DNA of 63,326 nucleotides, counting the filler, from Catajapyx aquilonaris (lineage: Eukaryota), in NCBI GenBank assembly GCA_000934665.2. It is 3 parts of 3 records of this genome, joined end to end, with 100 filler letters (N's around TTAATTAATTAA, not from the genome) between each part and the next. Parts side by side here need not be neighbours in the genome. Positions count along the whole stretch, not along the records: positions 42,351 to 63,326 come from JYFJ02006156.1; 2 more parts are not named here. The stretch is one strand, 5' to 3'. This document shows positions 32,846 to 63,326 of the stretch, piece by piece. Numbering within the stretch: position 1 is the stretch's first letter; each line of letters opens with the position of its first letter. Both the position numbers and the translations under genes were made by a program. Below the pieces are notes generated by a model that saw only the letters and a program-made list of their open reading frames with translations, did no database searches and was not told where the DNA came from.

Positions 32846-32932
<87 letters not shown>

Positions 32933-41340: not shown

Positions 41341-41634
41341 CAGGGTGATCAAACTTTTTTGTCGTTTTAATTATTGACAAATTCGGCCTAAGCTGCTTAT
41401 ATTGTAGTGCGTTACCTGGCAACTACGTCCGATGGGCCAATTCAAACACGAGCATGTGGAGAGTGCTTCCATTGTTGCCACTGTTTGCCAACAGTGGCAA
41501 CAATGGAAGCACTCTCCATATGCAGATGTTTGAATTGGCCCGTCGGACGGAGTTGCCAGGTAACGCACTACAATATAAGCAGCTTAGGCCGAATTTGTCA
41601 ATAATTAAAACGACAAAAAAGTTTGATCACCCTG
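41341..41634. mobile_element. Near-perfect hairpin MITE (Tc1/mariner-type)
   Basis: TA|CAGGGTGATCAAAC...GTTTGATCACCCTG|TA; the whole 294 bp is one inverted repeat with a ~4-nt centre near 41486-41489. Confidence 0.92.
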
Positions 41635-42250
41635 TATAGATATTAAGGTCAGAGACTCTGAATTAGTGCGGATCATGCTTATTCGGTCTTCATTATAGCA
41701 TTAACGGGGAAAATAAAGCAAATATTTACTTTCTCTGCAATCCTCTTGGTCATGTAACCTCAGCCCAGATCCAGCAGAGGTGATGATTATATTTTTAAAG
41801 AAATCTCACAAGAAACATACCTCGGGTGATAATGACTGATCCTGATGAAACTGAACATGCTAACTCAGGACAATATATGATAGACAAAAACGAAATATCT
41901 CGGGCTGAAATCCATATTTGCAAAATTTACGACGTGTTAAAGAGACAAAAATGGTATATTTCCATGCACAATGGGATTACGTTATATAGTGACCACATAT
42001 AATGACATTGAAGTTTGTAATCAGTTTTATTGTACCAAATACACATTATTTAACTTTCATACAATTAATTAACACATGTGCAATTCACTTTTTAATGCAT
42101 GGTTGATACAGAAACAAAATATTGCAATGTGCACAACAAAAGGAGAACCATATCATCATAATGGGGAACTAGCCTTGGTCTGGGATTTGGGATTTTTGTT
42201 CATAACTAGCTAGCCCATGCCCGTAAACATACATTCCATCACTCTGTTGC

Positions 42251-42350
42251 NNNNNNNNNNNNNNNNNNNNNNNNNNNNNNNNNNNNNNNNNNNNTTAATT
42301 AATTAANNNNNNNNNNNNNNNNNNNNNNNNNNNNNNNNNNNNNNNNNNNN
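42251..42350. other. Assembly gap / artificial contig spacer
   Basis: 100-nt N block with a central TTAATTAATTAA. Confidence 0.97.
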
Positions 42351-42698: not shown

Positions 42699-43094
42699 CC
42701 CACTAGTCCTTCCTGAACCAACTCCCAAAGGGTCATCCTCATCCTCAACCACCTTGGGCATGTCCACCACCATCTCCTCCTCTGCCTCTTCCTTCTTGAC
42801 CTCACAAAGGGTGTCTTCCATGAGCGTAGTAGACTCAATGTCCAACCATGGTGGTGCTTCCTCCTTCACCCGCAGCCTCCAACTCTCCTCGTCCACTGTG
42901 ATGTCCTCCTTATCTTCCTCCTCCTCCTCCTCCTTGATCTCGAGGAGAGTGTCTTCCACGAGCGTAGAATCACTGTCCAACCATGGCGGTGGTGCTTCCT
43001 CCTCCGTCACCCTTAGCCTCCAACTCTCCTCATCCACTGTGATGTCCTCCTCCTTCACTTCCCCTTCCTTCTTTATCCTCAAGATCAACGACAT
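42699..43094 (-). CDS. ZNF-A: acidic N-terminal exon of a C2H2 zinc-finger gene; finger exon not in this contig
   Basis: ttgcag|ggccATG start, 132 codons MSLILRIKKE...VVEDEDDPLGVGSGRTSG, donor GGG|gtaagt (phase 0). Paralogous to the first coding exons of ZNF-B to F. The intron runs into the gap. Confidence 0.75.
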
Positions 43095-43373
43095 GGCCCT
43101 GCAAACACAAGAAGTCTCTCAGAAGTGTGGGCAAAGGGAATCGAATCAGACGAGTCCATCCCCACCAGTCCACTCACCCTCCTCCTCCTTCTTCTTCTTC
43201 CCTCCACACCAGTCCTCCCGACTTCTCAATTGATGTGTGGACGAGAGGGGAAGGGGGAAGCGTCCCTCACCCTCCTTATCCTGGTTCCAATCGAACCCAA
43301 TCCAGGGACTTGTGAGACGGGTTCAAACGGAGTTCCACTCACCCGAATAAGAAGAGAGAGAATCAAGGCAAGT

Positions 43374-43480
43374 CGGCCATCTTTGATTTAGGGTGCATTC
43401 CCATCGCCACCCTAGAGAAAAAAATTAATAAATAAAGGACGTGCTTAAACGCTACTTCCTCCTCACCAGTCGCCGCTACT
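43374..43480 (-). promoter_or_regulatory. ZNF promoter cassette, copy A
   Basis: Plus-strand order CGGCCATCTTTGATTT, AGGGTGCATTCC, CTTAAACGCTA, CAGTCGCCGCTACT; likely non-coding exon donor near 43341. Confidence 0.6.
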
Positions 43481-43865
43481 ATCACTGGGGCTGCTATGCG
43501 CTAACAGACATGTTAATTCCGTCATTCAATACACTTCTAATTTACAACAGGTTCGCCTCCCACTTTTGTCACAGAGAAGTCAGGCGAGTTGGTGCACGAT
43601 ACAATTACGTCCCGGGTATGAAAAGATGAGTCACCCATAGCCACATCCCCAACGGTTATTGCCCTCAAGGTCCATTCATTATCATCATGGCCAAATATAG
43701 TGCGTCGCTAGAACAACTGACCCTATGGCCTGCACTAGTTTCAGCCAATTTCATGGTTTTCCCACAAGGACCCCACCATGTCCTTTCACAACCAGGATGT
43801 ATCTCTCCTGTATAAATTTGCATCTGACTTTTCAAATATTTGGCATGGTTTTTGTGCACCGCAGG

Positions 43866-43997
43866 CCAACGAACGTTACTGTGGCTTTGCCAAGAGTGAA
43901 GTTTACCTTCACACAGTCAGTCTGTTAAACCAATGAACGTTACTGTGGCTTTGCCAAGAGCAACGTTTACCTTCACACAGTCTGGTAAACCAACGAA
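43866..43997. repeat. ~64-bp tandem duplication
   Basis: ccaa(c/t)gaacgttactgtggctttgccaagag...gtttaccttcacacagtc twice plus the start of a third unit. Confidence 0.85.
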
Positions 43998-44377
43998 CAA
44001 CATGACGTCACGACCGGCCGCCGCCCCTCCAGTCATGTCCACTTCCTTGGGAACCGGAAATGAGACGGACAACATTCCATATACGTACTTTATGGTTTTC
44101 CATCTTTCACACCTTACCTTCCCAGTGTCCCTGAAACAAATGATGTGAATATGATAAACAATACAAGTGTAACCAACCTTCAAAATTTATTGAACTTCCT
44201 GAATTACTACTATGCATTAAAGTGAATTAATTTATTGAATATATTGATCCTGTTCTCCCACTTTTTATCTATAAATGCCCTAAAGACCTAAGCCAACATT
44301 AGGTAAATTCACATGAGATCTTCACTTATTACAATTTGTTTTCGGCACAGCTCAAATACAAATATAAATGGTTTCTC

Positions 44378-47094
44378 TCATGTATGAATTCGCTTGTGAG
44401 ATTTCAAATGATATAAATTCCGAAACTTTTCTTGGCACACCTCACAAGTGTATGGCGTTTCTCCTGTATGAATTCGCATATGAGTTTTCAAATCACTTGG
44501 ACGGCTAAAGTTTTTCTGACACACCTCGCAAGTGAATGGTTTTTCACCAGTATGAATTCGCATGTGCTCTTTCAAAGCACTTCGATTTCTAAATTTTATC
44601 TGGCAGACCTCACAGGAAAATGGTTTCTCTCCTGTATGAATTCGCATGTGCGATTTCAACTGACCTGACTCATTACATTTTTTCTGGCACACCTCGCAAG
44701 TAAATGGTTTTTCTCCTGTATGAATTCGCAAGTGAGTTTTCAAATCATGGGAATGACGGAACATTTTCTGGCACACCTCACAAGTGAATGGTTTTTCTCC
44801 TGTATGAATTAGCATATGCGCTTTCAACACATTTGACGCAATAAATTTTTTCTGGCACACCTCACAGGCATGTGGCTTCTCACCGGTATGAATTCGCATG
44901 TGACTTTTCAAACCATATGAATCACGAAACCTTTTCTGGCACACTTCACAATGAAATGGTCTTTCTCCTGTATGAATGTGCATGTGAGTTTTCAACTTAC
45001 TTGAACGACGAAATTTTTTCTGGCACACTTCACAAGTAAATGCTCTCTCTACTGTATGAATGCGATTGTGATACGGTATCTGAGTTGAATCCGAAAGTTT
45101 TGTCTGGCAGAAATTTTCCCCCCCGCGAACCCCCACGAGAGCATCCATATCATGCAGGCTTCCAAATTCTCTCCCGCATAATGTTCCCTCAAATGAACTT
45201 ATTCCATCACATATTCCCCTGGTCCTTTCCTCTTGGTTCCCCTTCTCCTCTGCTCCGCCTTCAGTTCCCACAACCTGCAATGTGAATTCCAGTAAGTAAA
45301 TTTCAAATTTAAAGTGTGCATTGCGTGATGCTTTCCACCTGCTTTGGTCAGTTGGAAGACATCCCTCATTATAAAGCACTGATTCCCAAAATGTGGATTG
45401 CACATATAATATTTGGGTAGCAAGGGAGGATAACAAATTATTTTACCCAAATGATCCTCTCTCTCTGGAAAAGTATCCCAGTAAAACAGTAAATTTATTA
45501 CACTATTTAACATGGTTTTCCCACTATTTCCGTGTAGTGTACCTCCTCACCACAACTCCTGTCACTAAATGAATCAATTGTTACGAAAATGACCTAAGTC
45601 CCCTCTTTGTCATTTTTGCGTCAACGCCACCATGTTGCTTCTTAAATTCAATTGCTTCTTAAATTTCAACACGTGTTGTGAATGAAAAGGTCATCACTCA
45701 GATGCCTCTGCATACATTAAATTTAGTATATGGTGCAAGGAATTAACCTGATTCTATCACAGAGTAGCACATAATTATGCATTGTTCCCTCCAAGGTATT
45801 CATGTCTCACTGGAGAGTGCACAATGTGAGATTGTTTTATGACAACCAATACAAAATTTCCTCATGTGAAAGTGAGTACATCCCCCAAGAACACATGGCA
45901 ACATTAACCCTGGAACCGTTCCGAGCCTGAAAGTCACGGGAACCGTGCCGTGGGGTCTTTTAGGACCACACGCCTTATTTTAATTTTTATTAATTTTTAT
46001 ATAATACTCGTACCTTCAATGTATTGACTACATACAATCATTCTTTGATCTATGCCTAAAATGATCGCTAATTAAAAATAAACATGCACTTCCTGTTATA
46101 AACTTTTTTTAAAATGGCAAACATTGTAATTGTAATTTTAATGCATTTTAATTCCTTTGGGGTCCGAAAAAACCCCACGGCACAGTTCCAGGGTTAATGA
46201 GATGGGCAACAACTACAGCTGAAAGTTACGAAACATAAAATCATGGCATTTTAAATTGCGTAACAATCCTCTTAATTCGCGAACCATTTCTGAAATGTCT
46301 TAACCCTGTAATGCCCCCCGGGTCATATCTGGCACACCATTTAGTGCAATTTGGCACTTACAGGAAATATAAAAATGGCAAAAGTTGCAAAAATTGCACG
46401 AAATGGTGTGCCAGATATGACCCAGTGGGCATTACTTAGATTAGTGGGCATTACAGGGTTAAAGGAACTCAAGAGAAAATTCACATTAAATGCTGTCAAG
46501 AACTGTATAGGGCTCCATCCTGTGTGACTTTCGTCCAATGTTATATTGCATTTTGAGCATATTTATTTATTTATTTATTTATTTTACCCCATTGGGAGAA
46601 TCGGCACTCCATTAGGGGGGTGGAGTACCACCATTGGATGGGGCCAAGGATAGGGAAGGAAGGAAGCGGCTGCGGCCTATTATACGGAAGCGACCCCGGA
46701 ATTATCCTAGAAAGACCGTGGAAAACCACAGAAAACCACGGTCAGGGTTGCCGGCCCCGGGATTCGAACCCAGGACCTCCCGATTAGCAGTCGGGCTCCT
46801 TAACCACCACACCAACCTGCTTCGGTGCATTTTGAGGCATATACGTACCCCACTAATCAATCCTGAACCTCCTGCCAAAGGGTCGTCTTCATCTTCAACC
46901 ACCCTAGGCATGTCCACCACCATCTCCTCCTCCTCCGCTTCCTCCTTCTTGATCTCACGAAGCGTGTCTTCTGGGAGCGTAGAGTCCTCATCAAAGCAGG
47001 ACGGGGTCTCCTCCTTCACGTAAATCGGCCAGGTCTCTTCCGTTGTGTTGTCCTCCTGCGCCTCTTCCTTATTTATCCGCACTACCTGTGACAT
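44378..47094 (-). CDS. ZNF-B: C2H2 zinc-finger protein (~380 aa; 8 intact fingers plus 2 degenerate)
   Basis: Exons 46849-47094 (acidic, MSQVVRINKEE...DDPLAGGSGLISG) and 44378-45274 (ttgcag|GTT, CxxC-x12-HxxxH repeats with TGEKP linkers); phase-0 GT-AG intron. Confidence 0.88.
45908..46193. mobile_element. piggyBac-type MITE in ZNF-B intron
   Basis: TTAA|CCCTGGAAC...GTTCCAGGG|TTAA with subterminal gtgccgtgggg / ccccacggcac. Confidence 0.8.
46304..46458. mobile_element. piggyBac-type MITE (155 bp), copy 1
   Basis: TTAA|CCCTGTAATGCC...GGCATTACAGGG|TTAA; near-identical copy at 60304-60461. Confidence 0.88.
46563..46825 (-). mobile_element. tRNA-derived SINE (family 1), internally deleted copy
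   Basis: Minus strand: A-box TGGTGTGGTGG, B-box GGTTCGAATCC, (AAAT)n tail; TSD TGCATTTTGA(G)GCATAT at 46547-46562 and 46826-46842; homologous to 50595-51008. Confidence 0.88.
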
Positions 47095-47348
47095 GGTCCT
47101 GCAACACAAAAGTGTGTCATGATATCATCGTACAAGTGTGAGCAAAGAGGAACATAAATCAGAAAGTGAGGCTCATCCCCACCATAAAAGAACCTGTTTT
47201 GGTTGACGTTAATGATGCCTCTTGGTGCTGTCCAACCGTGTCTTCAGGTAGTACATGGGCCACGTCCAACTGTCTGGGGTCCCCTGGTGTGAAACGAGTT
47301 CGATCAACTCTTAAAGACGCTTCAAGAGAATCGGAACACTCTTGTTCA

Positions 47349-47477
47349 GGCGGCCATCTTTGATTTCTCTTTTTTCTTTCTTTTTTTTATGCAAATTAGG
47401 GTGCGTTCCTACCCTCGCACCAGGGTGGAAGGACGGGCTTATGCGCTATTGCTCCACTTCAATAAATCGCCGTTACT
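47349..47477 (-). promoter_or_regulatory. ZNF promoter cassette, copy B
   Basis: GGCGGCCATCTTTGATTT, T-tract, ATGCAAAT (47389), TAGGGTGCGTTCC, CTTATGCGCTA (47438), TCGCCGTTACT. Confidence 0.65.
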
Positions 47478-47758
47478 GATGGAGAGCTGCTACTCCTGCT
47501 ATCCCAGGAAATCAGTTATATTTCTCTTGCAAAACTCAGGAAAATATTGATGTTAATGCAGTAGGTTACTGCATGGTACTTGGTAATATTAGAGCAATTA
47601 TTCATTTGCAACCGAAGGATACCGTACGCCTGATCAAGAGCAGGGAAGAAGCTGTAATGCGTACAAGTCAAGATTCCCCAGTGATTTAATATACCCAAAA
47701 GTACAATCGGCATTATGATACATGTTTTTGGCATACCTCAAACAAAACATTGGTTTTG

Positions 47759-49664
47759 TCACTTATGAATTTGCATGTGCTTCTTCAAATCGCTTGAGTA
47801 GCGATATTTTTTCAGGCACAGCTCACAAGTGAAAGGTTTCTCTCCCATATGAATTCGCATGTGAACTTTCAAATTACTTGAGTAACGAAATGTTTTCTGG
47901 CAGACCTCACAAGTAAATGGTATCTCAACTGTATGAATTTGCATGTGAGTTTTCAACTGATATGAATCGCAATACTTTTTCTGGCACACCCCACAAATGA
48001 ATGGCTTGTCTCCTGTGTGAGTTCGCACATGCTTTTTCAGATTGTACGAATCACGAAATTTTTTCTGGCACACCTCACAACTAAACGGTTTGTCTCCTGT
48101 ATGAATTTTTATGTGAGCTTTCAAAGTACTTGATTCACGAAATGTTTTCTGGCACACTGCACAAGTGTATGGCCTCTCTCCTGTATGAATTCGCATATGA
48201 GATTTCAAATTACCTGAATCAGCATATTTTTTCTGACACACATCACAAGTGAATGGTGTCTCCCCTGAATGAGTTCGCATGTGACTTTTCAAATTTCCTG
48301 ACTCACGAAATGTTTTCTGGCACACTTCACACGTGAATGGTTTTTCTCCTGTATGAATTCGCATGTGACTTTTCAAATTACCCGATTCCCGAAATTTTTT
48401 CTGGCACACCTCACAAGTCAGTGGCTTTTCTCCTGTATGAATTAGCATGTGTCTCTTCAATGTACTTGCATCAAAGAATTTTTTCTGACACACTTCACAA
48501 ATAAATGGTGTCTCTCCTGTATGGATGTTCATGTGAGTTTTCAAGGTACCAGATTCGCGAAATTTCTTCTGGCAGACCTCACAAGTAAATGGTTTTTCTC
48601 CCGTGTGAATTCGCATGTGAGTTTTCAAATGACTGGAATCGCCAACTTTTTTTTTGCACACCTCACACGTGAATGGCTTTTCTCCTGTGTGACTTCGTAA
48701 ATGAATTTTCAAGTTACCTGAATCACGATATGTTTTCTGACAGATATGGCACCTATTTTTTTCACTATAAGTTATGAGGTGAATTTTCAAATCATCCAGG
48801 GTACCAAATATTATCTGGCATACTCTGCATTCCAATGGATATTTTCCATCACATGTTCTCCTGTCACTTTCCTCTTGGATCCCATTCTCTTCTACTCTGA
48901 CTTCAGGTCTCTCTTGCATGACCTGAAATGAGAATTACAGAACATCACATATTTAGCAGACTTCGGTGAGTGCTGAGACCAACAATACGATACTGTACTG
49001 TACTGTTTATCTGCAGACCTCGCCACAAGGCACCATGAAAGACAAAAAAGGGCATTTATGGTCACGTGTTTGGACTCAGAAGTGTGGCAGTGACGTGTTT
49101 ATGATCACATTTTGTTGTTAATGTAAAATTTTTCACCATTTTTAAATTAAACATTTTAAAACGTAATTTTCATCCCGACGTAAAATGAAGCAGCGTAAAA
49201 CGATGTAGGTACTGTATTTGATAAAATAGTCAAACTACATGAGGATGTTTGAAGGGGAACCATTTACATTGTCAAGTGATTGATTAAATAGAGCAGGGTT
49301 GTGGCGGAGATTCCCAAAACATCATCCAAGTCTGGGTGTTTTACTTGGATTGATAATTTGGTGTATAATTATACTGCAATTGCAGTAGATGACATACCCC
49401 ACTAGTCCTTCCAGAACCTCCTGCTAAAGGGTCGTCTTCATCTACAACCATGCTGGATGTGGCCACCATCATCTCTTCTTCCTCCTCCTCCACTGGCTCC
49501 TCCTTCTTGACCTCACAAAGTGTGTCTTCTATGAGAGCAGAGTCCCCATCGAAGCAAGTTGGGGTCTCTTCCTTCAAGGGAATCTGCCAGGTCTCCTCCG
49601 TTGTGATGTCCTCATTTTCTTCTTCCTCCACAGCTTCCTTCTTTATCTCCACTTCCAGTGACAT
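47759..49664 (-). CDS. ZNF-C: C2H2 zinc-finger protein (~476 aa; 12 intact fingers plus 1 degenerate)
   Basis: Exons 49398-49664 (MSLEVEIKKE...DDPLAGGSGRTSG) and 47759-48922 (tttcag|GTC ATG CAA); phase-0 intron; open finger array. Confidence 0.9.
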
Positions 49665-49813
49665 AGTCCTGCAACACAAAACTGCAGGTCATGTAATCAC
49701 ATCAAAGAGTATCCCAATCATGGCAGTTGCTGAGAAAGAACATTTCTCTGAGGTGTGGACACAGGGAATTATGAAATAAAGCAAAAATAGTTAATCATAT
49801 CACCCATGTAATA

Positions 49814-50521
49814 CTGTATTACCTCACTTAAAACGGCATGCCGGTATAAAATGAGGTTGACCAGCATGCCGGTATAACCCGGGGGTGGCCGGCATGCCGC
49901 AATACCTGAGGTAGATTTCCTTAACTTTGATCCTTGTCTTAATTTCTTGGAATGTATCTGGTACTGTACTAAAATAATGTTACAGTAAAAAATGTGCGAG
50001 TACAGGCCTACAAGGCTATGAGACTATGGAAGTTCATCTGTTGCACAGGGCATAGAGTGTGACCAATCCCGCATATTCGCAGATATTGTTGACAATCAGA
50101 GGATCTCTTTATGTAGTGGTATCAATTTGTCTGAGAAGCCTCGTTACTCAGATAATAAAATCCAATCCTTATGTATGACATATAATGGTATTATCATTAT
50201 ACTGTACTTCTCTTCTTGTAGCCTTGCACTTTTAATTGAAAATGTTGCCATGAGAGAACTTAACGAACGATCTTCTGCGAATATGTCAGGCAATAGAAGT
50301 GTCCTGGGCTGTATATGCACCGCAGAAAATGGTGAAACGCATTCATTTGGGTAGTAATAATTTTCAGAGAGATCGTGATAATGCTGTGCTTAAGAAAACC
50401 TCGCCTTATACCGGGATACCTCGTATAGACTAGCATTGCGGTATAACCACCAGATCGTGCATTTCTAGAACCTGGTCGACCTCGACTACACCGGCATGCT
50501 GCTGTAAGTGAGGTAATACAG
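49814..50521. mobile_element. TA-flanked MITE (Tc1/mariner-pogo type, 708 bp) in ZNF-C 5' intron
   Basis: TA|CTGTATTACCTCACTTA..GCATGCCGGT...GACCAG and CTGGTC...ACCGGCATGC..TAAGTGAGGTAATACAG|TA (~50-bp TIR); absent from the paralogous ZNF-D intron. Confidence 0.85.
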
Positions 50522-50594
50522 TACTTGTTACACTGTACTCCCGATTATCGGTGCTAACGAATGCACCATCATGCCCGGAATAACTGGAAAATAC

Positions 50595-51008
50595 CGAAGC
50601 AGTAGTGGTGTAGTGGATATGGTGTCCGACGGCTAATCGGGAGGTCCTGGGTTCGAATCCCGGAGGCCGGCGACTCTGATAATGGTTTTCTGGGGTTTCC
50701 CAAGGTCGCCCCAGGAATAATTTCCGGGATCGTAGCGTAAAATAGGCCACAGCAGCTTCCTTCCCTGTCCTGGAGGAGGTGCGGGTCAGTGGGGATTTTT
50801 GACTCGCATCTAGGGGATCATCTTGGCGAACGGGCCCCCTGAGGGCCTGCACATGACACCCAACCTGAGACATTGCACATGCACCAGTGTCCCACCCTGT
50901 CTATCCCTACCCTGTCCCTGCACGATAGTGGTAATCCACTCCCATAAGAGAGCCCATGGCTCTAGCACGGGGTATATCTTAAAAAAATAATAATTTAAAA
51001 AAAAAAAG
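50595..51008 (+). mobile_element. Full-length tRNA-derived SINE (family 1)
   Basis: A-box TGGTGTAGTGG, B-box GGTTCGAATCC, A-rich tail; TSD ATAACTGGA(A/T)AA at 50580 and 51009; empty site in the ZNF-D intron (~54230-54250). Confidence 0.88.
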
Positions 51009-51831
51009 ATAACTGGATAACATGGATCTAAGAATGGTCCTAGACACCATACAAATTAGCTTTAAGAATATTTTTAATGAAATACTGTACATACTGTGTG
51101 CTGCTTTAAATACAGTTTTATCACACTAACAAAACTTGGGCCTATTGTCTTCTGGAAAAAGTAAACTATGTTATATAATATGTTCTGTATTTCTTTGTTT
51201 CTGAGACATACTGACATTTTCCGCACTGTCATTTCTAACTTTTTTTTTTTTGGCAATGCAAGGAAAACTGAATGAAAGCTTAACATAACACGTGTCATGA
51301 CAATAACACTTTCAATCACGTCACACCACTATTGCAGATGCATAAATGTTGAACGCAAACAAAAAATATTATATGCATTGAAATAGCTAAGCAAGAAAAT
51401 AAATGTTCGAGGTGACAACATGAAAGGAACCAATTCATAGTGTGCAAACTTTACTGCACAAATCAAGAATTTTTGAAATGTCTTCTTAGGGGATAAATTT
51501 GAACCCTTCTTGTGGTGGTAATATTTTTATTACAGGTCATACGGTTAATTATAGACATAAATCCTAGCAGAGCTCATCTCCTGCACATGTCCCGCATAGA
51601 ACCAACTTGGTCCTATCAAGGCTGTATCGGTATGCGTACACAGTATGTTTCTTGCACATTGCGGGCCTTACCTACACTCCTGTTCTTGGGACACCAGCGC
51701 GGATTATCCGGTCAGGTTTTCCTGCTCGAGTGTGACCCTGTGGTGTCCGGCAGGGTGGGAACAACCAGCCGTGTGAGCACTGCAAGCCAATCAATAGTTT
51801 CTACCCACTTCTGGACACTTCAAGAGGAAGT

Positions 51832-51966
51832 CGGCCATCTTTGATTTCCATTCCATTTCTTTTTTTCTTTTTTCCTTTTAAAGTGCAAACGAGGGTGCGT
51901 TCGTATACCACAACCAGGGTGAGGAGGACCTTATGCGCTATTCAAGCCTCGCCAGTCGCAGCTACT
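51832..51966 (-). promoter_or_regulatory. ZNF promoter cassette, copy C
   Basis: CGGCCATCTTTGATTT, T-tract, GTGCAAAC, GAGGGTGCGTTC, CTTATGCGCTA (51930), CAGTCGCAGCTACT. Confidence 0.65.
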
Positions 51967-52355
51967 GGTCCCGCACTGCTACTTCTTCCAACAAACGCTA
52001 TTCGCAACTCGAAGTTGATCAGAGGATAATGAGTGATGTTCGGGGTTTGCAATGAAAGATCATCAATAATTGATTAAACAAACCAAATTAATTGGAATTC
52101 AGGCTGTGAAAATATCATACAAGTACCGGTAACACTAATTCAAAGATGGCGATTGAAATAAATACAAGGAAAAACTAGTTTTTCAAGTGCAGTACGTACA
52201 ACACTGTCATTTGTAACAATAACAGAAAAACAAAACAATATGCCACTCTGAGTTCCTCTTGGCATTTCACAACCAGCATGTGTCCATCCTTCATGCCACT
52301 TTTCAAATACCAGTACTGTGCATTACAAATTTTTTTAAATGGCTCAGCACAAAGA

Positions 52356-53727
52356 TTAATGGTTTTTCTCACGCGTATGGATTCGCTTGTGCCTTCTCAA
52401 ATCAGATGAATCGCGAAACTTTTTCTGGCACACCTCACAAGTGAATGGTTTTTCTCCCGTATGAATTCGCGTGTGATTTTTCAACTTGGTTGAATCACGA
52501 AATTGTTTATGACAAACCTCACAAGCGAACGGTTTTCCCCCCGTGTGAATTTTAATGTGACTTTTCAAATGAATTATATTTCTATATTTTTCCTGGCACA
52601 CCTCACAAGTAAATGGTTTTTCTCCTGTATGAATTCGCATGTGAGTTTTCAAATTACCGGAAAAACCGAATTTTTTCTGGCACACCTCGCAAGAATATGG
52701 TTTTTCTCCTGTATGAATTCGCATGTGATGTTTCAACCTACACAATTCACGAAACTTTTTCTGGCACACCTCACAAGTATATGGTTTCTCTCCTGTATGA
52801 ATTCGCATGTGAATTTTCAAATGATTAGATTCACGAAATTTTTTCTGGCACACCTCACATGTAAATCGCTTCTCTCCTGTATGACCTTGCATGTGCTTTT
52901 TCAAATCACTTGGAAAACTAAATTTTTTTTTGCATGCCTCACAAGTGAGTGGTTTTTCTCTTGTGTGACTTCGTATATGAATTTTCAAGTTACCAAAATC
53001 ACGATATGTTTTCTGACAGATATGGCACCTATTTTTTTTACTGTACGTTATGAGGTGAGTGTTCAAATCATCCAGGGTACCAAATATTATCTGGCACACT
53101 CTGCATTCCAATGGATATTTTCCATCACATGTTCTCCTGTCACTTTCCTCTTGGACCCCATTCTCTTCTACTCCATCTTCAGTTTTCATTTGCACGACCT
53201 AGAATGAAAATTACAGAACATCACTTTCTGTTGTGCAGAGTGAGAATGACACCGTGGTGAAGTGGTTAGATCTACAGCCTACCACCTCTGATCCTCAAGT
53301 TCGATCCCTTGTTTTGAGAGAGGATATTTGTGTGGATAGTTTCCACTTTGCCAAGTGATTGATTAAATAGAGCACGGGTATTTTACTTGGATTGATAATT
53401 TCATGTGAATAGTGTAAAATTAAACTCATACTTCTGCAGATTGCTTACCCCACTAATGGTTCCGGAAGTAACTGCCAAAGGGTCATCTTCATCTTCAACC
53501 ACCCCAGACATGCCCACCATCATCTCCTCCTCATCACCCTCCGCTTCCTCCTTCTTGATCTCACGAAGGGTGTCTTCTATAAGAGTAGAGCCATCATCAA
53601 AGACAGAAGGGGTCTCCTCCTTCAAGGGAATCTGCCAGGTCTCTTCTGTTGTGATGTCCTCATCTCCTTCTTCTTCGTCTCCTCCGCTCTCCACAGGTTC
53701 CTTCTTTATATCCACTGCCTGTGACAT
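52356..53727 (-). CDS. ZNF-D: C2H2 zinc-finger protein (~373 aa; 8 intact fingers plus 1 degenerate)
   Basis: Exons 53449-53727 (MSQAVDIKKE...DDPLAVTSGTISG) and 52356-53198 (ttctag|GTC GTG CAA); phase-0 intron. Confidence 0.9.
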
Positions 53728-53841
53728 GGTCCTGCAACACAAAACTGCAGGTCATGTAATCACATCAAGGAGTATCCCAATCATCACAGCTGCAGAGAAG
53801 GAACATTCCCCTGAGGTGTGGGCAGAGGGAAATATAAAGTA

Positions 53842-54130
53842 CAGTAAAACTTCTACATGTCGAATCTCCCGGGAAAACTTCGAGTTATAGAAGATTCGAG
53901 TTACAGAGCAGCATTGCCTCCGAGCTGGCTACCAGGGAGGGCAGGTTTGGGTCCAATGTCTGGATGCCATGCAAGAGCTTCCAGATCCATGGAGAACTTC
54001 GAGTTATAGAAATTCGACATAGGGAAGTTTATTTCCTATTCGTTTACATTGTGACCAACCAAGCTCAACATTTTCTTGGACTATTATAGAGAACTTCGAC
54101 TTGGAAGTTCGACTTATAAAAGTTTTAACG
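53842..54130. mobile_element. pogo/Tigger-like MITE in ZNF-D 5' intron
   Basis: TA|CAGTAAAACTTCTACATGTCGAA ... TTCGACTTATAAAAGTTTTAACG|TA with internal TTCGAGTTATAG repeats; absent from the paralogous ZNF-C intron. Confidence 0.7.
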
Positions 54131-54964
54131 TATTAAACCAAATTAGATAAGCATATCACCAATGTAATACAGTAGTTGTTACACTGTACTCCCGATCATC
54201 ATTCTGTACTAACGAATGTGTCGGGGTGCCCGGAAAAACCCGAATAATACAGATCCAAGAATGGTCCGAGACACCAAGAAAATTAGCCTTCAAAATATTT
54301 TTAATGAACTATCATACATGTACAAAAATCATGTTATTCAAGTATTTCTTTGTTTCTGATGAGACATACTGACATTTTTCAGAATCGCATCTCTAACTTC
54401 TTTTGGCTACGCGAGGAAAACCGCGCCTGGATAATCTAGAATACTCAGGGCACAATAATATTTACAGGTGGAACAGTGGTGTAGCCGTCGGTGCAATAGC
54501 CTATGAGGCCGTGTGTGCTCGCTTCCCAGATTGGACATAAGAGGTGGAAAATTCTTCCATAGGATCTCTGCAAGTTAGTGCCGCTTTCTCAGGGTCATCC
54601 ATCACAGTGCAGTAGGCAATGAGTAATGATGGGTCATTGATCCCCAAGGAGGTCCCAGTGTGCCTGTCACGGGGGATACCCTACCACAGGTACTTCTGTT
54701 TCATGACATTTCACATTAATGCCAGTTTCAAAATGACCTGTGATAAAAATGCAACTGGAAAATTTCGAAGAACTCTCACCCTCCTTCTTCACAGTCCCCA
54801 CTCTTCCCAGCCCCCTCCTTCTTCCAGTGCCGACGATGTATGTAAGCGGGGAAGGGGGAAGAGTCCCTCCTCCTCCGGGTTCCAATCGAACTGATTCCAC
54901 GGAATGAGACGGGCCGAAACGAGTTCCAATTCACCAAAAAAAGAGAATCGAAAGAATAATCTCA

Positions 54965-55070
54965 GGCGGCCATCTTTTTTATGCAAATGAGGGGTGCGTT
55001 CCTGTCGCCACACCAGAGAGTGGAAAGAGGGGCTTATGCGTTATCCCTCTCCACTGCAAAATCACCGCTA
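54965..55070 (-). promoter_or_regulatory. ZNF promoter cassette, copy D
   Basis: GGCGGCCATCTT, ATGCAAAT (54981), GGGTGCGTTCC, CTTATGCGTTA (55033), TCACCGCTA. Confidence 0.65.
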
Positions 55071-55806
55071 TCTCTGCATAACCGCTACTTCCTCCAATTC
55101 AACGCTATTGGCAACTTAATTCTGATTAACTTGTCAGCAGTACCATATGTGAACTTGCCAACTTGAAGCCAATCCTTATTGGGTGAGGAAGTAGTATGTA
55201 GTCAGCGCAAAGGCATACTCGGGGTGCCTTCATCAACGTGGTTGATGTAGTCCAGACGACACCAACCCTTCTCTTGTGCATAACATGACAGCAATCCCAC
55301 GTCCAGAATGATTTGGTTGGGCTTGGATGCATTGCCCATTATATTGTTAGAGTAACTGATCCCACCTGACCTTCCTGGTGTGTTCCATTATTCTTCATAG
55401 TGTTTTCCTCACATCGGGGAAGAGGGTCACTACTCTCGCGTCAAGTGGGATCGTGGAACCACAACGCCGGAGATTGGGACCGCCAGACCGCAAGGGAAAA
55501 CAAACCAAATTAATTGGAATGAGGCTGTGAAAATATCATACAAGTACGGTGCACTAATTATTCAAAGATGGCGATTAAAATAAATACCAGGAAAAATTTG
55601 TTTTTAGTGCATGGAAAGTTATATACAGTAAGTACACTTTGTCATTTGTAACAATAACAAAAAACAACACAATATGCCACACTGAATTCCTCTTGGCATT
55701 TCACAACCAGCAAGTGTCCATCCTGCATGCCACATTTCAAATACCAGTATTTGCATTACAAAGTTTTTAAACGGCACCGGCACAGCACAAAAAATAATGG
55801 TCTCTC

Positions 55807-58482
55807 TCATGTATGAATACGCATGTGCCTTTTCAAATGGCCTGATTCACGAAACTTTTTCTGGCACATTTCACAAGTAAACGGTTTTTCTCCTGTATGA
55901 ATTCGCATGTGACTTTTCAAATGATTTGATTCCTGAAACTTTTTCTGGCACACCTCACAAGTGAATGGTCTTTCTCCTGTATGAATTCGCATATGATTTT
56001 TCAACCTGGTTGAATCACGAAATTTTTTATGACACACCTCACAAGTACATGGTTTCTCCCCTGTGTGAATTTGCATGTGAATTTTCAAATCATTTAGATT
56101 TCTATATTCTTTCTGGCACACCTCACAAATATACGGCTTTTCTCCTGTATGAATTCGCATGTGATTTTTCAACTTACATGATTGAGGAAATTTTTTCTGG
56201 CACACCTCACAAGTGAATGGTTTTTCTCCTGTATGAATTCGCATATGAGTTTTCAAATCACTTGGACGGATAAAGCTTTTCTGACACACCTCGCAAGTGA
56301 ATGGTTTCTCTCTTGTGTGAATTCGCACATGACTCTTCAACAGAGTTGAACTGTGAAATGTTTTCTGGCATAACTCACAAGCAAATAGTCTTTCTCCTGT
56401 ATGAATTCGCGTGTGCTCTTTCAACTTAGTTGAATCACGAAATTTTTTCTGACACACCTCGCAAGTAAATGGTCTTTCTCCAGTATGTATTTTAATGTGC
56501 TTTTTCAAATCAGATGAAGTGTTACACGTTTTCTGGCAAAACTCACAAATAAACGGTTTTTCTCCTGTATGAATTCGCATGTGAGTTTTTAAATGACTGG
56601 AATCACGGAATTTTTTCTGGCACACATCACACGTGAATGGTTTTTCTCCTGTATGAATTTGCATGTGCTTTTTCAGAGCACTTGGGTAACTAAATTTTTT
56701 CTGACACGCATCACAAGCAAATGGTTTGTCTTCTGTGTGAATTTGCAGGCAGAAATTGTTCTCACTATGTGTTATCATGTGAATATTCAAATCATCCTGG
56801 GTACCAAATATCATCTGGCATATTCTGCACTCAAATGGATTTCTTCCATCACATATACCCCTGTTCCTTTCCTCCTGGATCCCCTCCTCTTCTACTCCAT
56901 CTTCAGTTCTCTCTTGCACAACCTGGAATGCGAATAACAGTACATTAATTTCTATTATGCAGTGTACTGCTATGTCATTTGGAAGGCATCTCTTGTTATA
57001 AAGGCTGCAGTGGGTCAAAGAGGGCTGCAGTGGGTATTTCACATGTCCACAGATTGTACTATCACAGATTTTACAGTACATACATGAAATGTTGAAATTA
57101 TAAAAATAATGACCTCTATTGGATCAAGGTCAAAAAGGTCCTCTATTTGTCTCCTCCATACCTGACTACACAATGTTAAAAAGACAGATACACAAGTGCT
57201 TTTTCCCATTCTGGTGCTGTCACATGTGCAGCCGTAAGTGCAAACAAAGCCCACCTGTGATTATAAGGAGATGAGAAAGGCATGGAAGCGTTTCTTTCAA
57301 TATAGTGCACCAGTATGAATAGCTACTTAAATTATTCCACAACAACAGACCTCTGAAACATGGGAATTACCCTATTCAGTGAAACCTTGATTCATTGTTT
57401 ACGTAAGCAGAAGAAAAAAAAAAAAGGCTGCTGGATTTGGGAAATTATACATGTGGGGATATGCTACAGGTGGCCCACCCTTTCTTGATATTGACATCAC
57501 AGTTTTATTTACCGACTCCTAGTCAACAGAAATCTGCTGGACGCACTTTGGAACCTCCCACTTTTCAGGTATCTATGGAGATGCCCTCATGCAACATGAA
57601 GTGTGAACCAAAGAGTTCTGCTAGAAGAGGTACTTTCTATCCTTTTCCATTAGACATTGTGAGGCAGCCGCCATTTTGTTGGAGGTAATATTGTTGTCCC
57701 AGTTGCTAGACAACATACTGTCAGAATGTTTTAGACTTACCGTTAGTACCGTAGTTGATATGTTGGAACCGAACTCCGACTGAGCACTCAAGAGGACCAT
57801 GCCAAACCACTGTTGCGTCCTCGGGTACAGATCCAGGGCGGAAAAGGGCTCATCGGTATCTTTGCACCGGTAATAAATGTTATAAATCTCATAAATAATT
57901 TTTGTGTACTTGTAATAAAAGAGGCTATCTGAAATATATTATTTTTCATTCTAGGCTTACTCCATTTTAAACAAATAACTCTTTGGTGTGAACAGTGTCA
58001 AACACACAGTTTACTGATATTGTTGTGTGAGGGAATCTCCATAGATACTTGAAAAGTGGGAGGTTTCAGTGGTGCGTCCGGCAGATGTCCGTTGACTAGG
58101 AGTCGGTAAACAAAGCAATGATGTGTCAGATCGTTCTTACGTTAACCCGACTTTAGGTTCTTGGATTGATGGTGAGCTGTTGTGTTAAATTATACTGAAA
58201 TTCCAGTAGACGGCATACCCCACTAGTACTTCCAGAACACCCTGCCAATGGGTCGTCTTCATCTTCAACCGCACTGGACACGGCCACTACCATCTCCTCT
58301 TCTGCTGGCTCCTTCTTGATCTCCCTAAGCGTGTCTTCAATGAGCGTAGAGTCCTCATCGAAGCAGGAAGGGGTCTCCTCCTTCAAGGGCAACCTCCAAG
58401 TCTCCTCGTCCACTGTGACTGTTCCGTCTTCCTCCTCCTCCTCCTCCGCCTCTTCCGTCTTAATCCACACTGCCTGCGACAT
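55807..58482 (-). CDS. ZNF-E: C2H2 zinc-finger protein (~459 aa; 12 intact fingers, one further finger internally deleted)
   Basis: Exons 58219-58482 (MSQAVWIKTEE...DDPLAGCSGSTSG) and 55807-56922 (ttccag|GTT GTG CAA); phase-0 intron. Confidence 0.9.
57508..58110. mobile_element. MITE with ~80-bp TIRs in ZNF-E intron
   Basis: tttaccgactcctagtcaac...acctcccacttttcaggtatctatggaga vs tctccatagatacttgaaaagtgggaggt...gttgactaggagtcggtaaa. Exact termini and TSD unclear. Confidence 0.7.
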
Positions 58483-58592
58483 GGTCCTGCCGGGAACAGT
58501 TCAGATCATCCGATGGAATCAGTTCGAGTCGCACTCCGGACGCTTCAAGACCTCAAAAGAGCCGTTCTTCGAAAGAGAACAAGGCAAAGCCA

Positions 58593-58725
58593 GGCGGCCA
58601 TCTTTGATTTCCATTTTTCTTTTTTCTTTTTTTTTAATATTGCAAATTAGGGTGCGTTCCTACCCCCGCACCTGGTTGGGAGGATGGTCTTATGCGCTCT
58701 TTCTACATGACAAGTCGCTGCTACT
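58593..58725 (-). promoter_or_regulatory. ZNF promoter cassette, copy E
   Basis: GGCGGCCATCTTTGATTT, T-tract, TTGCAAAT, TAGGGTGCGTTCC, CTTATGCGCT (58689), AAGTCGCTGCTACT; ~110 bp upstream of the ZNF-E ATG. Confidence 0.65.
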
Positions 58726-58816
58726 GCTGGCGACGCTGCTTTGCGCTAACAGCTCTTTTTTTTTTTTTTTTTTGCCATTCACTATATANTTCACTATATA
58801 CACTTCTCATTAAAAC

Positions 58817-59076
58817 GGGTTCCGATGGATTGCTTCATTCACCGGTGCAAGGAAACAGGGACAATGGGAAAGGATTGGGATTTTTGGGGAGGGAACATGG
58901 GTGCAAGGTGCACGTCTGCAAACGGGTCATGTGCTGTTCCCCAGGAGGTTAGGTTGCCAGACACCTCCTCGGTGCAGGTGAGAGACCCTCCTGACGCAGG
59001 TGAAAGGAAACTTCCCCACCAGGGCCTTTCACTCAGCAAGCCGTGACGTTACCATCACGGCCATCTACACCTCCCC
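58817..59076 (-). mobile_element. tRNA-derived SINE (family 2), B-box-deleted copy
   Basis: ccccaggaggttaggttgccagacacctcct...gacgcaggtgaaaggaa...gggcctttcactcagcaagccg matches 39160-39309, but the segment carrying the B-box is missing. Left boundary approximate. Confidence 0.75.
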
Positions 59077-59507
59077 GATAAAACCCTATTGAAAGCAGCA
59101 TATAATCTGTATGAACAGTAGTTCATTTAAAACCTGGAAATAGCTTATTATTTGAAGACACCTAGAATCACTTCAGGATTATGCCTGTTTTCAGCTTATT
59201 TGCACGACTGCATCAATTAGCACAGATAATAATCAGAAGTGCAGTGTAACAACAACAACCAGGTATTGTCTCATCCATCTCAAAAAATTTCAATATCTAA
59301 TGCAACGTTGAGAATCAAAAACTGATTTGAAACCAATATTTCACTTCAAACCATTTACTTTTTTTTAAATATAGAGTATAGTTCAAACATGGTTTTAATT
59401 ATTTTAATCACATTTTTAATTGTTTTAAATTTAGCTTAAATTAAATTGAATTCATTTGAAATAGAAATATTTCCATCAGATTTTATAAACATGCAAAAGC
59501 CACTGTA

Positions 59508-60274
59508 CAGGGTGCGCCAGAAGTAGTCTAACACGTTCGTGAATTTTTTTCTTGGTGCAGTGATTTATTAATTTGAAACTGAATGAATCACACAATAGCA
59601 CATACTCTGATAATGCATCCAGGTATTTTTTATACATGATGCTGTGATGTCTGACTGTACAGGAGGTCACAGAACTTGTCTGCCATCACCGCCGAGGCAC
59701 TCACGTAGTCGACCCTGGACAGACCTGCACACTTTGGCACAAAAGTCCGGAGAAATTGTTGCAAAGCTCTCTCGGATCTTCTCTCGTAATTGTGGAAGAG
59801 TTTTGGGCTTCTGGGCGTATACTTTCTCTTTCAATACACCCCACAAAAAAAAAAATCTGGAGGTGTCAGATCGCAGGATCGTGGTGGCCAGTCCAACATG
59901 GCCGCCGGCGGCCATGTTGGGCCAGCATGTAGCGCTTCCCTTTTGCACCTTTAAAGTTCAGCCTAGTCCGGTAGGGTCGCCACATAATTGCTCTGGGAAA
60001 TGTCTCATGGCGCTCTCAGGTGAGCACCCGCTGCAAAACTCATCGGCAGGCGATAAGCTCAGAATGTAGTATAAGTGTCCGGGGGCTGCACTGAATGCGG
60101 TCCTCTAGTGACAAGCGCCCGGCCATCTTTCAGGTGGCGATGACATCGTCTCTATTGGAATCCTCAGGCACTATCGACATCGCCCCATACTATTATGTTA
60201 AAATTTTACCTGAATTGTAGTTGTGAGGACGTAAAAAAATTCTCAAACCTGTTAGACTACTTCTGGCGCACCCT
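59508..60274 (-). mobile_element. Internally deleted Tc1/mariner (DD37D/DD41D-like) transposon with transposase remnant
   Basis: TIR TA|CAGGGTGCGCCAGAAGTAGTCTAACA / TGTTAGACTACTTCTGGCGCACCCT|TA; minus strand reads WPPRSCDLTPPDFF(frameshift)LWGVLKEKVYAQKPKTLPQLREKI...RLRECL..DGRQ, the catalytic C-terminal motif of these families. Confidence 0.88.
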
Positions 60275-60303
60275 TACAGTACTGCAGTATTTCATTGCTT
60301 TAA

Positions 60304-60461
60304 CCCTGTAATGCCCCTTGGGTCATATCTGGCACACCATTTAGTGCAATTTGGCACACTTACAGAAAATATAAAAATTGCAAAACTTGCAAAAATTACA
60401 CTAAATGGTGTGCCAGATATGACCCAGTGGACATTACTTATAGATTAGTGGCATTACAGGG
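60304..60461. mobile_element. piggyBac-type MITE, copy 2
   Basis: TTAA|CCCTGTAATGCC...GGCATTACAGGG|TTAA; near-identical to 46304-46458. Confidence 0.88.
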
Positions 60462-61067
60462 TTAAATCAGGTAAATTTTTAATTTCACATTTCACCACAT
60501 TTCGGAATATTTATAGGACAACATAACGATTACAGGTATTTTGAGAAATCGAAAAGGTGGCCTGGGCACAACCTCCTCGCGCAATCAGGTCCCGCCCCTC
60601 CTCGCGTCATGTGATCGGCGGAGAACTAAACGGACTGGTTTGGGAGCATGGATGACAGGCCGGATACAGCCGGATTCAGCGGATCTACGCCTATTTTTCA
60701 ACGGATACACTCCCAGGAAAGGAGGTAGGGGTCTCCAGCTACGAATGCATATAACAAAATAAATGCATACAGTAAGTCAGAAGGGGAGAGGATGAGACTT
60801 TGTGACAAATCAGTGTTTAGAATCTCATGCCACTGTAACTGTGCGCGTTTACATGCGAGCGATTTGATCGCGCAATGTCATCGCCGGGCGATGAATGCAA
60901 TTGTTTTGGGAGACAGTAACAATCATGGTAACAATCGAATGTGTCTACAATAAAGAATTTGCAGGATAATGTTGCAGCAGAGTAGTTTAAAGGAGTCTCT
61001 AGTTTCTCTCCTGTATGAATTTGCAGGTGTGTATTGAAATTACTTTCCTCTGGAACACTTCACATTT

Positions 61068-62779
61068 TCATGCTTTGTCTCCTGTATGAATTCGCATATG
61101 CAATTTCAAATTATATGAATTACTCAGCTTTTTCTGGCACACCTCACAAGTGAATGGTTGGTCACCTGTGTGCATATGCATGTGAATTCTCAACCTGCTT
61201 GATACACGAAATTTTTGGCCACACATCTCGCAAGTAAATGGTTTTTCTCCTGTATGAATTCGCATGTGAGTTTTCAAATGATTTGAATCACGGAACCTTT
61301 TCTGGCACACCTCACAAGGGAATGGTTTGTCTCCTGTATGAATTTGCATGTGAGTTTTCAAATGACTGGAATAACGGCACTTTTTCTGGCACACCTCACA
61401 AGTGTACGGTTTGTCTCCTGTATGGACTTGCATGTGACACTTCAAGTTTGATGAATTACAAAATCCTTTCTGGCACACCTCACAAGTGAATGGTTTTTCT
61501 CCCGTATGAATTGTCATATGCAATTTCAAATTATACGAATTACTCAGCTTTTTCTGACACACCTCACAAGTGAATGGTTTTTCTCCCCTATGGATTTGCC
61601 TATGCTTTTTCAAATCACTGGAATCCCGGAACTTTTTCTGGCATACCTCACAAATGAAAGGTCTTTCTCCTGTATGAATTTGCACGTGCTTTTTCATACT
61701 ATACGTATCACAAAACTTTTTCTCGCACACCTCACAAGAAAATGGTTTTTCTCCCGTATGAATTTGCATATGCTTTTTCAAATTACTGGAATCACAGAAC
61801 TTTTTATGGCACACCTCACAAACGAATGGTTTTTCTCCCGTATGAATTTGCATATGCTTTTTCAGAGCACGTGAATCATGAAATCTTTTTTGGCACACCT
61901 CACAAACGAATGATTTTTCTCCCGTATGAATTTGCATATGCTTTTTCAGAGTACATGAATCACCAAATATTTTCTGGCAAACATTGCAGGATTTCTTTTT
62001 ACTATGAGTTATGAGGTGTACTTTAACAGCACGCAGGCTACCAAATATTTTCTGGCATATTCCGCACTCAAATGGGTGTCTTCCATCACATATTCCCCTG
62101 CTCCTATCATCCTGGATGCCTTTCTCTTCTATGCCGCCTTCAGTTCTCGGTTGCACAACCTGGAATGTTAATTTCCGGTACATTAATTTCTCTGCTTCTG
62201 CTTCACACCGCTTCCAGACACAACTTTGAAGCTGACGTGTTCCTGTATTGGAGCCACCATGAGGTACTACAACAGGCATCTCTTTTTTGTTCAAATTTTC
62301 GTTACAAAAACCGACTAATCCACTCTTTGCAGCAAAAATCGACATATCCACAGCAACTATTCCTGAAACTACGACTTGACGATGTGGATCAGTTTCTTGT
62401 AAAAGCTCATCATATGCAGCATCCACATAAGTAGCAGATGGACTTGGGCCAGTCTTTAATATAAATTAACTTCAGCACCACAGCTTTTTCTCATTATCCG
62501 GGAACCATTTATCTTGGAATTATCGGGTTTCGGAAGAAGCGCCTGCCTCGGTGCTTGATTTGGATTGAGGATTTTGTGTGACTTTTGTGCGAAATTATAC
62601 TGCAATTTCAGCTGGTGGCTTACCCCACTAGTCCTTCCTGAACCAACTGCCCAATGGTCATCTTCAACCACATTGGACGTGTCCACCACCATCTCCTCCT
62701 CCTCCTCTGCCTCCTTCTTGATCTCGAGGACAGTGTCTTCCACGAGAGTAGAGCCACCATCAAAGCAAGAAGGGTGATC
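61068..62779 (-). CDS. ZNF-F: C2H2 zinc-finger protein (12 fingers), 5'-incomplete or interrupted
   Basis: Finger exon 61068-62159 (ttccag|GTT GTG CAA) and the 3' half of the acidic exon 62624-~62779 (PSCFDGGSTLVEDTVLEIKKE...GRTSG|gtaagc). Paralogy stops near 62774, with an in-frame TAG at 62780-62782. Confidence 0.8.
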
Positions 62780-63326
62780 CTAGAAGGGGTATCCTATATC
62801 ATCCTATATCATGAAATACTACGTGTCAAAGCTCTGATCAGTCCGGGTTGTCACAGTTACGACATCAGTTATCGACATTGCAACAGCAGTTGCAATAACC
62901 ATTGTGTTAGATTCAAGATGTCAACAGGTTTCGCAAGACGAGGAATGTACAACAGCATTATTACGCAGGTTAAGGAGATAACGGAACGATATATAAAGAG
63001 ACCATAAAATATCAACAGCAGAACGGCTAGAGGTAGCTCGGGCTGACGAGCTACCGCTATGTAATATCAAAATGTAAGGGGTTACCCCCAGTACTGTAAA
63101 CCATTATCATTACCAATATATATATATATTACTTGTTATTAACTGCATCATTGTTCTATCCCCCGCACCCAACGAACCGACCGAACGAACGGTCACATTG
63201 GCGTCATGAACAGTTTTGGGGTCGCGATTTTTTTTTTGTAAGGGGAAATAGAACCGCGTTAGAGTCAGTGAAGCGCGTTCGCGAAGCAACGGAGAGACAA
63301 CACGTGAAGAGAACATCACAAATGCA

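Follow-up and report, generated by a model that had tools for sequence, protein, structure and literature searches.

An acidic exon with conserved SUMO-type motifs heads a tandem C2H2 zinc-finger family of Catajapyx aquilonaris, a candidate SUMO-dependent repressor system

We analyzed a stretch of 63,326 nucleotides (nt) from the arthropod Catajapyx aquilonaris (GCA_000934665.2), composed of three joined parts and called the window below. Coordinates refer to this whole stretch, on which a cluster of six paralogous C2H2 zinc-finger (ZNF) genes, designated A to F, spans about 42.7-62.8 kb. Judged from its motifs and its pattern of evolution, the acidic first coding exon of these genes (the head) would be a SUMO-dependent repressor module placed on DNA-binding arrays that diversify, a reading to which we assign a probability of roughly 0.6.

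Among 128 open head exons of the family, glutamate accounted for 24 percent and aspartate for 9 percent of the composition. Conservation by column was determined on 96 single-copy exons with a median identity of 60 percent. Three lysines of the head were kept at 98, 96 and 93 percent, the glutamates at +2 from them at 92-98 percent, a tryptophan at 92 percent and the tripeptide DPL at 98-100 percent; the stretch EEEMVV was also among the best-kept columns. The residue ahead of each conserved lysine is I, V or L, while the neighbours of the lysines vary, and the resulting pattern I/V/L-K-x-E corresponds to the SUMO consensus psi-K-x-E. At least three such sites were present in 108 of the 128 open exons, which altogether contained 421 sites compared to 33 after shuffling; the respective figures for DPL were 130 and 3. 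The SUMO-type sites lie at median distances of 23 and then 22 residues, with DPL 24 residues beyond.

Selection on the head was studied in 36 independent close pairs, for which the ratio of nonsynonymous to synonymous differences (pN/pS) was calculated by residue class. Values of 0.08 for K, 0.06 for E, 0.06 for W and 0.02 for DPL were obtained, whereas the psi and x positions (first and third sites) gave 0.66 and 0.44, and the remaining head 0.67. K and E of the three psi-K-x-E sites, Trp and DPL were thereby shown to be under strong purifying selection. Low pN/pS at K and E along with relaxed psi and x positions is the pattern predicted by selection for SUMO conjugation. The same data bear on the idea that the head is mostly a neutral linker, whose apparent conservation goes back to recent duplication and gene conversion and whose expansion reflects drift. 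Most head positions are indeed weakly constrained, as their pN/pS of 0.67 indicates, poly-Glu tracts differ in length among heads and the exon internally duplicates. However, K, E, W and DPL are near-invariant in exons of such modest median identity, their pN/pS lies 8- to 30-fold under that of the rest of the head, an exon was 88 percent identical where the neighbouring intron was 61 percent identical, and the contact residues of the fingers exhibited an omega above 1 (see below). This explanation has been largely refuted here and we consider it very improbable.

The structure of the gene E head was predicted by AlphaFold using a 64-row alignment. The model had a predicted local distance difference test score (pLDDT) of 60.6 and a predicted template modelling score (pTM) of 0.13, with no helix of four or more residues and no secondary-structure element. 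The head is thus predicted to be a disordered array of motifs and not a folded domain. A sequence-only reading of the window had compared it to effector modules like KRAB or ZAD; the purifying selection on its motifs agrees with an effector, but a folded domain it should not be called, given the predicted disorder.

The finger arrays showed the opposite trend at the residues contacting DNA. In 996 finger units, the entropy at helix positions -1, 3, 6 and 2 amounted to 3.7, 3.6, 3.5 and 3.2 bits, respectively, and 776 distinct four-residue fingerprints were counted. High entropy was discounted as evidence of selection, because comparable variability was seen at two non-contact positions. A codon model was applied to recent paralogous array pairs that had been picked by scaffold identity alone. 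For 29 pairs from 113 arrays, omega (the ratio of nonsynonymous to synonymous rates) at the contact positions -1, 2, 3 and 6 was 1.74-2.0 on codons unused for pairing (p 2.5e-5 and 4e-8); when restricted to contact codons, it was 1.51-1.71 (p 0.015 and 0.001). It exceeded 1 in all three divergence bins. The fit over all classes yielded 0.1 for zinc ligands and core, 0.35-0.39 for linkers and 0.61 for the other scaffold. All-site omega values of 2.3-3.6 and 2.8-2.9 were set aside as inflated, since the pairs were picked on scaffold identity. Single-base differences in contact codons were counted in 33 pairs from 149 arrays. They comprised 157 nonsynonymous and 17 synonymous changes, a nonsynonymous fraction of 0.90 compared to an expected 0.75-0.79 (p <1e-4); in the 14 closest pairs the counts were 69 and 5. 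Only the contact class exceeded the nonsynonymous expectation, while the scaffold classes stayed below it. For the helices, which the sequence-only reading had described as variable on a nearly constant scaffold, these pair-based comparisons show, with the caveats given below, positive selection at positions -1, 2, 3 and 6 (omega 1.5-2.0).

In the model that we propose, each gene would consist of a promoter of one common type, one exon encoding the effector and a single exon of variable fingers. Ubc9 would attach SUMO to the three head lysines, and the SUMOylated head would recruit co-repressors bearing SUMO-interacting motifs (SIMs), with Trp or the DPL motif as a possible second contact; this step is likened to the recruitment of Sov by the acidic disordered region of Panoramix. 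The fingers would bring the repressor head to fast-changing DNA. Transposons or other repeats are the most likely targets of this kind, a choice on which we would put even odds. Two SUMO-like genes, both split by introns, are present in the genome (contigs C158 and C1726), and a SUMO-like domain was also found on C76. In Drosophila Panoramix, a disordered acidic region that includes five consensus SUMO sites is reported to silence when tethered, and to need both its LxxLL motif and the five SUMO sites for Sov recruitment and silencing (10.1101/2021.07.27.453956). Acidity and disorder of the N-terminal region, several consensus SUMO sites and a short hydrophobic motif are common to Panoramix and the head; in contrast, Panoramix is described there as a single-copy, fingerless co-repressor of the piRNA (PIWI-interacting RNA) pathway with an LxxLL helix. 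By analogy, and with no claim of homology, the mechanism of the head may be modelled best on Panoramix. Human tiling screens are reported to have found SUMO motifs to be of importance in 149 of the 166 repression domains holding them (10.1101/2022.08.26.505496).

A number of points weigh against a SUMO-dependent repressor. SUMOylation, repression, expression and transposon binding of the family are properties that we infer, and according to the same human screens 12.3 percent of the non-repressing tiles hold a SUMO motif (10.1101/2022.08.26.505496). No PxVxL motif occurs in the 128 exons, and a CtBP-like PxDx[ST] occurs in two only. The N-termini of unrelated tandem ZNFs contain 188 psi-K-x-E sites compared to 35 after shuffling, 37 of 114 have at least three, and three sites together with DPL were found in just 3; SUMO-type motifs are common there and hence not special by themselves. 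Gene conversion, uncertain finger orthology and allelic contigs can distort omega estimates from pairs, most array pairs align over 4-6 fingers only, and alleles may account for two or three pairs that are very close. Moreover, positive selection denotes shifting specificity and not the nature of the target. Finally, Trp, Phe and Leu are conserved in the acidic head, and 25 of the 128 exons, compared to 15 expected from shuffles, passed an acidic activation-domain rule (formula 1 of PMC10550315, calculated from charge and W+F+Y+L on a tile of 39 amino acids (aa)). The head could accordingly be an activation domain of the acidic type that SUMO damps, in a family that regulates host genes and does not silence repeats; the net charge of each acidic exon in the cluster, -19 to -31, is in line with this. 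SUMO-damped activation of the synergy-control type operates in Sp3. However, 103 of the 128 exons failed the rule, including all but one of the five whole exons of the cluster, selection is focused on K, E and DPL and not on overall acidic-hydrophobic composition, and positive selection at contact sites would be less expected with conserved host targets. We regard activation as a weak explanation, alive but unlikely.

Returning to the proposed repressor family, its size was estimated by searching the genome (285.6 Mb) with the gene E head, which gave at least 153 matches, with 150 of 451 candidates scored, and confirmed that the family is large and clustered. A tight DNA pattern for the head had 77 genome matches compared to 0 for the control and was present in 41 of 140 retrieved family loci; 77 matches at this detection rate correspond to roughly 260 copies, a rough figure because the 140 loci were picked by similarity to gene E. 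The family is, to judge from these sequences, lineage-restricted and comprises several hundred proteins that are predicted to bind DNA sequence-specifically. Turnover was surveyed on 768,562 bases in segments chosen because they hold head matches. Out of 181 acidic loci, 139 were followed by a finger array, 31 lay at a segment edge and 11 had no array before the next head, so that an array was absent at 11 of 150 assessable loci. Six arrays were broken into two open reading frames (ORFs), and 12 of 165 arrays lacked an upstream head inside the segment. The birth-and-death evolution assumed by the sequence-only reading is borne out to the extent of some turnover, seen in these arrayless heads and broken arrays and in a truncated gene F. 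Among the first 140 loci, a simple rule called a donor in 132, of which 120 were in phase 0. In a few members a single open frame encodes both the head and the fingers (C2378 at about 1177, C2972 at about 15168, C8869 and C1026); in these, the intron has either been lost or is read through. In some subfamilies the introns comprise just 55-62 nt.

Attempts were also made to find relatives of the head. KRAB, SCAN, BTB and ZAD were absent by Pfam from the five whole acidic exons of the cluster and from finger exons B and C, as the sequence-only reading had stated. With 64 diverse head exons no Pfam family reached its cut-off, and neither KRAB (PF01352) nor ZAD appeared up to an E value of 0.1. 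A head profile had zero matches among 1.84 billion representative proteins, and the head thus matches no described domain family in these collections. Nor did 7999 candidates with lengths of 169-2000 aa yield a match at E 0.001, which is weak evidence. An Atlas search returned nothing at 0.9 or above, one KRAB-related row at 0.82 being below the trusted lead level, and no relative was found in phage records. As to an origin from the linkers of this genome's own ZAD-ZNFs, five ZAD contigs contained no match to the acidic exon. A comparison of the profile with one cyprinid ZNF, a presumed FiNZ carrier, gave no match (probability 0.1 percent, E 0.42). None of the unrelated ZNF N-termini from the finger search matched it, the best E value being 0.067 in that small set. 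Best matches of the finger exons were scattered across animals at 32-55 percent identity. A search that most subscription journals lay outside turned up no publication dealing with this head or reporting a DPL motif for ZNFs. HMMER filters may drop low-complexity sequence and the proteome of this organism is seemingly outside these sets; the searches show that the head has no catalogued relative, not that it is absent from related species. That the head evolved independently is a tentative reading, drawn from the lack of matches for a low-complexity sequence in collections that hold no genome of a close relative. The psi-K-x-E enrichment in unrelated tandem ZNFs extends over moth, beetle, prawn and fish and is five-fold, hinting at a general SUMO-based effector logic in tandem-ZNF N-termini.

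By its sequences, the family resembles FiNZ- and KRAB-ZNFs in the way it is laid out and evolves, but belongs to neither group. The helical, TRIM28-binding KRAB domain is absent here, where the conserved features are linear motifs. Effector exon and single finger exon, tandem clusters, TGEKP linkers and diversifying helices are shared with KRAB-ZFPs as described in PMC10547256 and PMC6444547. FiNZ-ZNFs, according to PMC10547256, likewise number in the hundreds, are under positive selection at base-contact residues and have a short Glu-rich N-terminal exon without known-domain similarity, which lies upstream of one exon for the fingers. FiNZ, however, comprises 28 aa, is confined to cyprinids and has a reportedly KRAB-like secondary structure, whereas the present head measures 80-90 aa, belongs to an arthropod and is predicted to be unfolded. 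FiNZ-ZNFs were shown to repress young transposable elements (TEs) (PMC10547256), whereas in the present family such an activity is hypothetical. The ZF271-like/APEZ genes of Oncopeltus and pea aphid are another non-ZAD tandem ZNF expansion in arthropods, with more than 115 genes, clusters of 4-8 and pseudogenes; they were reported without a domain beyond the fingers and with variable exon structure, in contrast to the fixed layout of two coding exons and the conserved head found here (Panfilio et al. 2019, PMC6444547).

With insect ZAD-ZNFs (PF07776) the family shares its occurrence in an arthropod, clustering and an N-terminal module preceding fingers, but the ZAD, a four-cysteine zinc-binding fold, is missing. 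The genome contains ZAD domains, at least 9 matches of 27 candidates, on contigs other than that of the A-F cluster. A small tandem family of true ZAD-ZNFs with multi-exon finger arrays (contigs C2790, C5848 and C5382) shows no relation to the acidic head. TEs seem not to be specific targets of ZAD-ZNFs (Wells et al. 2023, PMC10547256). The present proteins might similarly be architectural, heterochromatin or insulator factors, for which SUMO would serve localisation, condensate entry or turnover and whose targets would be satellites or boundaries, not transposon promoters. Such a role accounts equally well for SUMO sites and changing fingers; according to Wells et al. (PMC10547256), ZAD-ZNFs are active in heterochromatin but do not silence TEs specifically, and families of this sort are proposed to serve mainly in stabilising the genome over repeats. 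But no dimerisation fold was predicted by AlphaFold for the head, and this genome has only a small, separate set of true ZAD genes, with multi-exon arrays and with no acidic-exon match on the five contigs retrieved. An architectural role is, in our estimation, rather doubtful.

The six genes of the cluster are arranged as follows, strict C2H2 fingers being counted:

42699..43094, minus strand: gene A first coding exon, acidic, 132 aa, internal duplication, five psi-K-x-E sites
43375..43383, minus strand: gene A predicted YY1/Pho-like site in the shared promoter block
44378..45274, minus strand: gene B finger exon, 8 C2H2 fingers
46849..47094, minus strand: gene B acidic exon, 82 aa, two psi-K-x-E sites
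47352..47360, minus strand: gene B predicted YY1/Pho-like promoter site
47759..48922, minus strand: gene C finger exon, 12 C2H2 fingers and one extra degenerate lead finger
49398..49664, minus strand: gene C acidic exon, 89 aa
51833..51841, minus strand: gene C predicted YY1/Pho-like promoter site
52356..53198, minus strand: gene D finger exon, 8 C2H2 fingers and one extra degenerate lead finger
53449..53727, minus strand: gene D acidic exon, 93 aa
54968..54976, minus strand: gene D predicted YY1/Pho-like promoter site
55807..56922, minus strand: gene E finger exon, 12 C2H2 fingers
58219..58482, minus strand: gene E acidic exon, 88 aa, the reference for searches and fold prediction
58596..58604, minus strand: gene E predicted YY1/Pho-like promoter site
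61068..62159, minus strand: gene F finger exon, 12 C2H2 fingers
62624..62779, minus strand: gene F acidic exon, 5'-truncated, DDHW replacing DDPL
62849..63197, plus strand: long terminal repeat (LTR) of a young retrotransposon

These coordinates confirm the six same-strand paralogues of the sequence-only reading, with an acidic exon in each and a finger exon in B-F. Each gene opens with the acidic exon, and all six of these exons terminate AGTGGG/GT. In B-F the acidic exon is joined in phase 0 and in open frame, with no internal stop, to the single finger exon, which begins CAG/GT or TAG/GT (at 45274, 48922, 53198, 56922 and 62159, respectively) after an intron of 250-1574 nt. The tandem arrangement held, but the spacing, previously given as 3-5 kb, was measured start-to-start as 2.6-4.8 kb; the DDPL ending ascribed to all acidic exons applies to those other than F. 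The eight recognition helices quoted for gene B were read correctly. No finger exon of gene A was found from its donor up to the N gap (42251-42350) or, past the gap, in the final 3.2 kb of the contig. A blastn search beyond the gap for this exon or the 3' end of the gene gave only repeat-like matches. The LTR occupies the expected place of the 5' end and promoter of gene F. Some of its copies elsewhere in the genome are 98-100 percent identical over parts, and one copy of the element with two LTRs carries a retrotransposon gag ORF. Gene F is probably a decaying copy.

Genes A-E have a non-coding promoter block in common. Of 140 loci, 95 carry its motif AAGATGGCSG upstream of the head, with 101 occurrences in sense and 3 in antisense orientation. 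The motif is one base off the YY1 consensus CGCCATNTT given in PMC1904287; it may be a binding site of YY1/Pho. The start Met of the head is kept in 99 percent, usually 4 nt past a CAG acceptor, and the motif can sit as near as 54 nt upstream of the head. The ATG within the motif is followed by a non-conserved frame (M-A-A-stop in 30 of the 95 loci, M-A-D-stop in 7). An upstream coding exon with a known domain was considered and is unlikely because of the conserved Met, the CAG acceptor, this short distance and the frameless ATG. The same ATG creates a tiny upstream ORF, both in the promoter blocks at 43375, 47352 and 54968 and family-wide, and two further conserved upstream boxes have the consensus GCGCnTAAG and GGAACGCACCCT. 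The upstream ORF and the two boxes may mark common regulation or autoregulation of the family.

The genome proved to be rich in young miniature inverted-repeat TEs (MITEs) and short interspersed elements (SINEs), as noticed before, with copies 91-100 percent identical; for transposon targeting this is circumstantial and not evidence of binding. One young MITE family has two copies in the window, at 46300-46463 in the gene B intron and at about 60300-60465. For the copy in gene B, 210 candidates were obtained genome-wide, and the 40 of them that were scored lay at 92-100 percent. A tRNA-derived SINE at 46600-46827, called tRNA-Ser by ARAGORN, had 2704 candidates, 40 of them scored at 91-100 percent, and a second one at about 50597-50950 was identified by eye only. 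At 41337-41638 lies a near-perfect, MITE-like palindrome of 302 nt (arms of 149 nt, 96 percent), related pieces of which occur in other clusters of the family. Introns and spacers of the cluster contain elements with terminal inverted repeats at 45902-46199, 49812-50523, 57494-58124 and 59509-60274. Elsewhere in the window, 10387-10818 (minus strand) is a PBC-domain exon of a Pbx/extradenticle-type homeobox gene (Pfam E 2e-24). An RFX transcription factor gene with few long exons extends over 32109-34835 (plus strand); its named best matches are arthropod RFX proteins with 53-63 percent identity over the part searched, and it is possibly a diverged paralogue. An open frame of 113 aa at 23394-23732 (minus strand), without Pfam match, may be a repeat-derived fragment.

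Silencing by tandem ZNFs free of KRAB and TRIM28 is a stated open question for FiNZ-ZNFs (PMC10547256) and insect ZF271-like genes (PMC6444547). The family described here offers a sharply testable answer, as selection singles out three lysines, three glutamates, Trp and DPL in a loose exon of 80-90 aa. Such a family is moderately surprising, given that Wells et al. anticipate dozens of uncharacterised ZNF families among animals. Quite tentatively, and more speculatively than the repressor function itself, the family might constitute an anti-transposon system of KRAB scale without a folded effector or a dedicated TRIM28-like adaptor, in which a portable exon with three regularly spaced SUMO sites and an undescribed DPL docking motif would connect the sequence-specific fingers directly to the SUMO-SIM heterochromatin machinery also used by the piRNA pathway. 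Clusters of psi-K-x-E are enriched in the N-termini of many orphan ZNFs, so that 'domain-less' ZNF expansions in animals may have SUMO arrays as a common effector. If true, the head would supply useful tools in the form of a compact repressor tile dependent on SUMO and of a new docking motif. Going by its sequence, Catajapyx aquilonaris looks like it has a home-grown gene-silencing system resembling the vertebrate KRAB family.

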